Below, piece after piece: positions 22,867 to 23,626 of a DNA stretch of 64,000 nucleotides. Source of the stretch: Escherichia coli (lineage in GTDB: Bacteria; Pseudomonadota; Gammaproteobacteria; Enterobacterales; Enterobacteriaceae); NCBI RefSeq assembly GCF_017348835.2, contig NZ_CP071375.1. One strand, written 5' to 3'. A program made the position numbers and the translations under genes. Every line of letters begins with the position of its first letter. Position 1 is the first letter of the stretch. The notes beneath the pieces were generated by a model. That model worked only from the letters and a program-made list of their open reading frames with translations. It was not told where the DNA came from and did no database searches.

Positions 22867-22942
22867 ACGCCACCGTGTACAGTTGTAAAAAAGAGAGGCA
22901 CACCCAGATAAGTATGCCTGCTATCAGAACGTTATCGATGTA

Positions 22943-22966
22943 ATCTCATTATCTCATTATCTCATT
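22943..22966. repeat. Tandem repeat (ATCTCATT)x3 upstream of the recombinase gene
   Basis: Three perfect 8-bp units read directly; about 77 bp upstream of the recombinase ATG. Confidence 0.8.
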
Positions 22967-23626
22967 AATAAGATTTTTTGAATAGTAGTTCTACGCAATA
23001 GACTAAATATGAACTATTTATTGTGCAGCTTTTCTACAAGCCATTTTTAATGCGTGTTTTTATCTACAGCGATGTGGAAAAAATAAATATAAAAGCTATG
23101 AATTACAGGGCGTGGGGGATGTGTGTTACGTCTAATCTTTTAGTGATGTTTAGTAGTTTTGAGATATTTGACGTTATTTCTTATGAGGTTGTTTTTATTA
23201 TTTATCTTATTGATTTTATATGCATTTTGTCGTTCCATGAAGTTGGAGTGTAGAAAATAAAAATTTAATATTATTCCCGTTAACTTACAATAACACATTG
23301 TTGTAAGATATTTTTTAGTTGTAAGTAAATCATTATTGATGGGTTCTGCTAATAAATTAAAGATGTTCTCTTAAATAGTTTTTTGCTTTTTGTAAATATC
23401 AATTTGTTTATTTTTGATTCATTTGCTGGAGAGTATTTCAACAATTTTTATTTTTCGCATAAACTTATTAACAACTTTTTATTATCAATTGGAAATCAAT
23501 GTAAACTAAAATGTTAGCGAAGCGATAACCTTGTGCTAAAAAATATTTAAGCATGATGATTAATTAAAGAAGAGTAAAAATAAATCACTGCTAATAAATT
23601 ATACGAATCGTGTTTAAAGCTCCACG

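Follow-up and report, generated by a model that had tools for sequence, protein, structure and literature searches.

Sequence 5' of the recombinase gene ipbA in the PAI-X island of Escherichia coli as its probable control region

Fim-type recombinase loci and the PAI-X island

In Escherichia coli K-12, a long regulatory region with distant NanR, NagC, and IHF sites, the nanC-fimB intergenic region described by the Blomfield laboratory, lies upstream of the invertase gene fimB. The region studied here covers positions 22867-23626 of a 64,000-nucleotide stretch of E. coli DNA (hereafter, the window), and it resembles the fimB case in that a Fim-family invertase gene is preceded by a long stretch of non-coding DNA (about 1 kb or more). 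However, the sequence upstream of fimB has a G+C content of 37%, versus 28% in the ipbA region, and the two show no sequence similarity. Moreover, the distal part of the ipbA region is hyper-variable rather than conserved, and regulator sites have been mapped in the fimB case only.

The ipuA-ipuB-ipuS-ipuR-upaE locus of strain CFT073 likewise combines a Fim-type recombinase, an invertible promoter, a LuxR-type regulator, and an autotransporter. Its ipuA-ipuB spacer (747 bp, 28% G+C) is equally AT-rich, but the locus has two recombinases, whereas PAI-X has one, and the spacers share no detectable DNA similarity; in CFT073, ipuS overlaps the 3' end of ipuA.

PAI-X itself is a described island (PMC3789825, PMC6083910). 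Its recombinase FimX inverts fimS and the adjoining hyxS, which drives hyxR (PMC6083910; bioRxiv 10.1101/494401; PMC3789825), and hyxS, located beside fimX, is bounded by 16-bp inverted repeats (PMC6083910; PMC3789825). When FimX was over-expressed in UTI89 and CFT073, whole-genome screens detected inversions of fimS, hyxS, and ipuS only (bioRxiv 10.1101/494401). Both hyxS and the switch of the type 1 pilus are flipped by FimX/IpbA in uropathogenic and ST131 E. coli, so that the level at which the recombinase is expressed sets phase-switching rates relevant to urinary tract infection. The PAI-X papers cited here cover hyxS and the genes; the ipbA promoter, leader, and upstream region are without description there.

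The window was 100% identical to E. coli strain PE164, a pig isolate, and the same region was present in 1885 of 5426 complete E. coli genomes. The identical and related records are annotated in RefSeq with the gene order ykgH, hyxB, hyxA, hyxR, ipbA, betA, and ipbA is described there as "also known as HbiF and FimX" (aliases fimX / hbiF). Comparison with the empty site of K-12 NCM3722 delimited an insertion at 19714-23841, between ykgH and betA, with ipbA, hyxR, hyxA, and hyxB in the order known for PAI-X; the empty site joins ...AATACTGGAT to ATGAAGCATG..., with the junction at the right-hand island boundary. The inverted repeats of hyxS were found between ipbA and hyxR. The following features were recognized at the level of the island:

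Left 19713/19714 and right 23841/23842, no strand: boundaries of PAI-X (K-12 empty-site junctions)
22004-22306, no strand: hyxS, the known FimX-dependent invertible promoter element (arms 22004-22035 and 22275-22306)
22306-22866, minus strand: ipbA (= fimX = hbiF), tyrosine DNA invertase gene, a pseudogene here (RefSeq annotation of PE164 and relatives)

The region 22867-23626 is the sequence 5' of ipbA within this known island. The PAI-X islands of the uropathogenic strains UTI89, CFT073, and EC958 have the same genes in the same order at the same chromosomal site (ykgH/betA), with the same hyxS inverted repeats, and their ipbA copies are 98-100% identical to the one in the window. They differ in that the island is decayed in the window strain (ipbA and hyxA frameshifted, hyxB a fragment, IS3 in ykgH). 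Compared with the intact 187-aa gene, ipbA carries a 1-bp deletion in an A-run at about 22518, which is common to O157, and a second lesion, a 2-bp deletion at 22360; the frame is lost past residue 116, ahead of the catalytic H-R-Y region. In this strain, the upstream region therefore controls a pseudogene.

The whole of PAI-X is decaying in the window strain. An IS3-family element cuts ykgH (18694-20260), with a 177-aa open reading frame (19072-19605) corresponding to the N-terminal part of ykgH; of hyxB/upaB, an N-terminal fragment of 171 aa remains, and a frameshift interrupts hyxA. In a separate comparison of a B2 strain from urinary tract infection with a non-B2 marsupial isolate (L003 and L007), ipbA differed at 1 of 564 nucleotides (99.8% identity) and at none of 80 4-fold sites, while its neighbours hyxR and betA differed by 4.7-5% in the same pair. 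This pattern suggests that ipbA may have been exchanged horizontally between phylogroups in recent times.

Transcription start, leader, and conservation of the upstream region

We consider it likely that 22867-23626 is the 5' control region of ipbA, the Fim-family tyrosine invertase gene of PAI-X, and that it includes a promoter, a leader hairpin, an AT-rich spacer, and a distal promoter on the plus strand. As a whole, the finding is an ordinary one: the promoter and leader of a recombinase gene already known, in an island already described.

Cappable-seq of the O157:H7 strain EDL933 detected a transcription start site (TSS) at 372239(-) in all 8 conditions and classed it as 'orphan' (PMC10469882 Table S4), a class that it received because ipbA is a pseudogene in EDL933. 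In those coordinates (NZ_CP008957.1), the ipbA ATG is at 372164, which aligns to window position 22866 and gives a leader of 75 nt. No other minus-strand TSS is listed in the 800 bp 5' of ipbA in EDL933, and the EDL933 data contain no TSS on either strand between window positions 22942 and 23688. EDL933 itself, the source of these starts, has two repeat units and a frameshifted ipbA. Near the gene, the features are:

22867-22941, minus strand: 5' untranslated leader of ipbA, 75 nt (EDL933 TSS and ATG alignment)
22870-22874, minus strand: GGTGG resembling a Shine-Dalgarno sequence, 3 nt ahead of the ipbA ATG (read from the sequence; invariant in all alleles)
22886-22919, minus strand: terminator-like hairpin in the leader (terminator scan; stem 22919-22910 / 22905-22896, loop ATCT)
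22941, minus strand: ipbA TSS, placed by orthology with EDL933 372239(-); context cttattaaTGaGATAATgagatt[A]catcg
22943-22966, no strand: three tandem copies of ATCTCATT (minus strand AATGAGAT); the ancestral state is two copies
22948-22956, minus strand: extended -10 TGaGATAAT (hexamer 22953-22948, TG 22956-22955), from sequence and TSS spacing
22956-22964, minus strand: second, identical TGaGATAAT, 8 bp upstream, made by the extra repeat unit (from sequence)

The GATAAT hexamer is formed at the junction of two AATGAGAT units. It has A at -11 and T at -7, is preceded by TG at -15/-14 as in extended -10 promoters, and is followed by a 6-nt discriminator and an A at +1; by EDL933 orthology, the mapped 5' end thus lies 7 nt past the hexamer, in the range of 5-9 nt. 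Since the extended -10 of the mapped TSS is built at the repeat junction, the 8-mer repeat is the predicted core promoter of ipbA, to which it supplies the extended -10. The sequence at the -35 position, TATTCA, is poor (3 of 6 matches), and because of it neither a consensus promoter scan nor a PWM scan singled out the mapped TSS; a poor -35 fits an extended -10 promoter. The promoter sequence was essentially invariant in four alleles, and a 98-nt consensus across it was matched with at least 95% identity in 1886 of 1890 records. Three results could be of use in work on Fim recombinase regulation: the 'orphan' TSS of EDL933 is that of the ipbA promoter, a tandem 8-mer builds the -10 of this promoter, and the leader contains a conserved terminator-like hairpin.

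This hairpin consists of a 10-bp stem followed by CTC and T6 (T8 in other alleles). It spans +23 to +55 of the leader, and the hairpin and U-run end about 20 nt before the ipbA ATG. A stable stem-loop directly followed by a U-run on the transcribed strand is the arrangement seen in intrinsic terminators. The folding energy ranged from -12.9 to -14.8 kcal/mol in the four alleles (z from -3.3 to -4.3), and the stem was kept in all of them, the sole change being U.G to C-G in 2009C-3133 and Escherichia sp. A 151-nt fold of the region gave no significant alternative structure (z = -1.1), and the Hfq-CRAC list of strain Sakai includes no Hfq-bound RNA at the position of the leader. The hairpin would end part of the transcripts early (attenuation) or shield ipbA from upstream read-through; it is most likely a partial terminator or insulator. 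A more tentative proposal, which we regard as rather doubtful, is that the constitutive promoter would mostly yield a leader RNA of about 50-55 nt ending at the hairpin and U-run, and that read-through into the recombinase would be the regulated step, through an attenuator or a leader-derived sRNA setting the flipping of fimS, hyxS, and ipuS; the repeat-built -10 and the hyper-variable spacer would then give a lineage-specific recombinase dosage.

Upstream of the leader, divergence between alleles defined three segments, the last of which ends close to a TSS on the opposite strand:

22867-23060, no strand: proximal block of conserved non-coding DNA, made up of the leader, the core promoter, and about 120 bp 5' of it, from allele divergence
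23141-23400, no strand: hyper-divergent AT-rich central segment with discrete alleles; the half-sites and the first copy of the 14-mer, described below, fall within it
23501-23680, no strand: distal conserved block, just upstream of the plus-strand TSS; contains the second 14-mer copy
23689, plus strand: constitutive TSS, from alignment of EDL933 372981(+)

The proximal block was 2.7-6.5% diverged among four alleles, including that of Escherichia sp. MOD1-EC7003 (3.8-6.5% against the latter), whereas the 4-fold sites of ipbA differed by 15.6-19.5% from those of MOD1-EC7003. This strain, represented by a 2.8-kb contig, was the only relative of the island found outside E. coli. By this comparison, purifying selection acts on the first 190 bp or so 5' of the ATG. 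The preliminary description had taken a clustering of motifs as the sign of a regulatory region. For the gene-adjacent part, the label holds, with the EDL933 TSS at 22941 and the first 190 bp or so 3-5 times more conserved than synonymous sites; the clustering across the region was not borne out, only the tandem repeat exceeding chance.

In the central segment, substitutions reached 24-39% between every pair of alleles, compared with 0-17% at the 4-fold sites of neighbouring genes. Among the 1890 records, 796 were at least 90% identical to the window in this segment and 1094 were 60-80% identical, with none in between. The alleles were collinear, with no substitution bias and no EDL933 TSS. 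The divergence was more than twice the local synonymous level, and the flanks were near-identical. Such an excess is not explained by relaxed constraint alone. The G+C content was 28.2% over 22867-23626, versus 50.1% for the whole window, and ranged from 23 to 31% over 23000-23600. The 450 bp or so beyond the proximal block would form an AT-rich, fast-evolving spacer with no TSS, most likely H-NS-type silenced DNA without sequence-specific function, its H-NS binding being assumed from base composition only. The leader hairpin and this hyper-variable spacer are the only points of the region that might repay experiments.

The distal block diverged by 2.8% between the window and the B2 allele, and by 11-12% from 2009C-3133. 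The EDL933 TSS 372981(+) was active in all 8 conditions (PMC10469882 Table S4), and the block would be part of a distinct promoter on the plus strand that faces betA.

Outside the core promoter, the region could instead be functionless filler of an acquired island, its conserved blocks being tracts of recent recombination. The mosaic identity profile fits recombination patches, and the near-identity of ipbA in B2 and non-B2 strains (99.8%, with 0 of 80 4-fold sites changed) points to recent exchange, not to selection alone. However, the proximal block is conserved relative to Escherichia sp. (3.8-6.5%) despite the 15.6-19.5% found at the 4-fold sites of ipbA, and the distal block coincides with a constitutive TSS. 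We regard this explanation as unlikely, and a 5' control region of ipbA remains the preferred reading.

Several minor observations concern the right-hand end of the island. The plus-strand TSS at 23689 fires towards the 3' end of betA and is convergent with it, and weak, condition-specific minus-strand starts were located at 23774, 23805, and 23807, just downstream of betA. A 100-aa open reading frame (23627-23929), which sets the right bound of the region studied, straddles the island/core junction at 23841/23842 and was not kept as an open reading frame in the B2 or 2009C-3133 alleles. Strain 2009C-3133 has 96 extra bases (about 7285-7380 of sequence L005; insertion point at window 23678) between the distal block and the GC-richer end of the island. 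Directly 3' of the betA stop, an 11-bp perfect inverted repeat, TGAGAGTTACC / GGTAACTCTCA, with a 40-nt loop (23851-23912), is core DNA common to K-12 and has no U-run; it is possibly a 3' structure of betA.

Copy number of the 8-mer repeat

Repeat tracts within promoters are known from contingency loci such as hifA/hifB of Haemophilus influenzae, with TA repeats between -35 and -10, and the Neisseria porA/opc promoters, with poly-G/poly-C tracts. High slippage rates require tracts far longer than two or three units of an 8-mer. The ipbA repeat resembles these systems as a tandem repeat within a core promoter, where slippage can alter its length. However, its 8-mer is present in just two units, a state fixed in 99.8% of genomes, and it carries the -10 itself, so that an extra unit duplicates the -10 and leaves the -35/-10 spacing unchanged.

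The three ATCTCATT copies at 22943-22966 had been placed correctly by the preliminary description. TRF called the array at 22943-22967 (3.1 copies, 100% match), and a perfect tandem array of at least 24 nt and at least 3 copies occurred in none of 1000 dinucleotide-preserving shuffles, which were used to judge the significance of all motifs. Among the motifs noted, this array alone exceeds chance.

Of the 1890 island-bearing E. coli records, 1886 had two copies and 4 had three; arrays with one copy or with four or more were absent from these 1890 records. A 2-copy query was matched over its full length with at least 95% identity by the 1886 records and with 90-95% identity by the other 4. Conversely, the 3-copy sequence of the window matched PE164, GPEC172, GPEC102, and CRE1540 at 98-100%, and every other match was gapped by 8 bp. 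Haplotypes were compared for three of these four strains (PE164, CRE1540, and GPEC172), each of which was 0.1% from a 2-copy relative (F2_81, A41, and strain 2/0, respectively). As the 3-copy alleles lie on three distinct haplotypes, the expansion from two to three copies arose at least three times. The Escherichia sp. allele also has two perfect ATCTCATT copies.

The slipped-strand variation that had been suggested for the 8-mer thus finds some footing in these independent expansions, but a repeat held at two copies in 1886 of 1890 records lends it weak support, and copy number across genomes came close to the invariance that would speak against it. The third unit is probably a rare duplication by replication slippage. 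It would leave a complete promoter and probably have little effect: since the extra unit duplicates TGaGATAAT and the original geometry remains intact 8 bp further upstream, it is unlikely, on this reading of the promoter, that a change in copy number acts as an on/off switch.

A stronger version of the same idea is that the array is a contingency locus, in which frequent slippage tunes or switches the recombinase and hence the switching rate of fimS/hyxS. The repeat does sit exactly in the core promoter, spanning -1 to -25, and its expansion on different haplotypes, at least three times, speaks for the idea. Nevertheless, copy number was not highly polymorphic between strains (1890 records), with two copies in 1886, three in 4, and no other class, and the two perfect copies extend to the Escherichia sp. 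allele. Moreover, no off state arises in the 3-copy allele, where the geometry of the native promoter is retained with a shift of 8 bp, and an 8-mer in two or three units is far too short a tract for high slippage rates. Because only 2- and 3-copy classes exist (1886 and 4 of the 1890), the array is very unlikely to be a contingency locus, and we retain the repeat as a putative, nearly fixed core promoter.

Other motifs, coding potential, and the hyxS switch

Two further sets of motifs had been proposed as signs of regulation:

23283-23290, ACTTACAA; 23301-23308, TTGTAAGA; 23319-23326, TTGTAAGT, no strand: inverted half-sites (positions confirmed)
23346-23359 and 23588-23601, no strand: 14-bp direct repeat CTGCTAATAAATTA (positions confirmed)

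The half-sites are where they had been reported, but pairs of an 8-mer and its exact reverse complement nearby were more common in shuffled sequences (mean 2.2) than in the region (1 observed; p of about 0.78), and conservation of the sites was lacking in the alleles of B2, 2009C-3133, and Escherichia sp. The coordinates of the direct repeat were likewise accurate, and its signal was marginal, an exact repeat of at least 14 nt occurring in about 1% of shuffles (uncorrected); conservation failed here too, the first CTGCTAATAAATTA copy having 2 mismatches in the B2 allele and being unconserved across the B2, 2009C-3133, and Escherichia sp. alleles. As binding sites, the half-sites and the 14-mer have neither statistical nor evolutionary support. 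In scans of the region, matches to the IHF consensus and to the high-affinity motif of H-NS did not exceed chance. For the window strain, the practical outcome is a negative one: ipbA is a pseudogene, the repeat tract is not hypermutable, and the other motifs are at chance level.

We also considered whether the region might be a decayed gene, such as one for a second recombinase (compare the pair ipuA/ipuB), or might encode a small protein or a known sRNA. Two signals pointed this way: a plus-strand similarity of 15 aa (RLNMKYLLCGFSTTH) to residues 58-72 of IpbA at about 22997-23044 (E of 0.04-0.8, in a tiny search space), and a 44-aa hypothetical open reading frame annotated by PGAP at 23119-23253. 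However, a profile HMM of five Fim recombinases gave scores of about 0 against six-frame translations of three alleles, and the 44-aa frame is broken by a frameshift in A41, cut short in the B2 allele, and unannotated in B2 records. No open reading frame of the region was conserved across alleles, the small ones had no Pfam match, and Rfam gave no match at E up to 1 over 21900-24000. At blastn sensitivity, no paralog of the upstream region was found in E. coli genomes: the coding part of the recombinase alone matched fimE, fimB, and ipuA, and the region showed no similarity to the flanks of fimB, fimE, or ipuA or to the ipuA-ipuB spacer. A remnant of a second recombinase was rejected on the weakness of the 15-aa match, the only one given by tblastn, and on the HMM scores, and a decayed gene, small protein, or known sRNA is highly improbable; a non-coding control region remains the preferred reading.

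Two sRNAs were rejected as candidates: PapR of uropathogenic E. coli (UTI89), which is an unrelated GC-rich sequence encoded elsewhere, and Esr41 of EHEC, which is encoded in O-island 43. EcOnc/Hfq-CRAC lists no peaks at Sakai 3715xx-3722xx or 3729xx-3730xx.

The region might also be read as another invertible element of the Fim type that recombines at the half-sites or at other inverted repeats. The adjoining Fim-family recombinase and AT-rich inverted repeats (e.g. 17 nt with 88% complementarity, arms 23370-23386 and 23535-23551) could suggest this reading, but it was rejected as barely credible: inverted repeats were at chance level, none was found to flank 260-314 bp occurring in both orientations with an internal promoter, four alleles were collinear and gave no match on the minus strand, alignment on the same strand and in one place was seen for 1886 of about 1890 records over at least 80% of ipbA and its upstream sequence, EDL933 has no TSS inside the region (22942-23688), the published FimX inversion screens show only fimS, hyxS, and ipuS (bioRxiv 10.1101/494401), and hyxS lies on the opposite side of ipbA, so that the cognate switch is outside 22867-23626.

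Several observations were made on hyxS itself. Its assembled orientation was the same in the window, A41, and the B2 strain 2/0, and looks like hyxR-OFF. A constitutive EDL933 TSS (371561+, all 8 conditions) falls inside hyxS at window 22265 (+), where it is directed away from hyxR and, in antisense, into ipbA; inversion of the element would place it about 68 nt 5' of the hyxR ATG. As ipbA is frameshifted, the switch is expected to be locked. The inversion of fimS needs IHF, and a perfect IHF consensus, TATCAACATGTTA, one of only 5 in the 64-kb window, is present within hyxS at 22205-22217.

In 2009C-3133 and GPEC172, hyxS has been precisely deleted, leaving 58 bp between hyxR and ipbA (5847-5904 of sequence L005 and 851-908 of sequence L009). 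The deletion junction, CTGACATTTTGATTCA joined to GAAGG, corresponds to a crossover of the left site with the right site. The left site is itself a 39-bp palindrome (22001-22039), one half of which is a direct repeat of the right site, and an inverting recombinase could therefore also excise hyxS.
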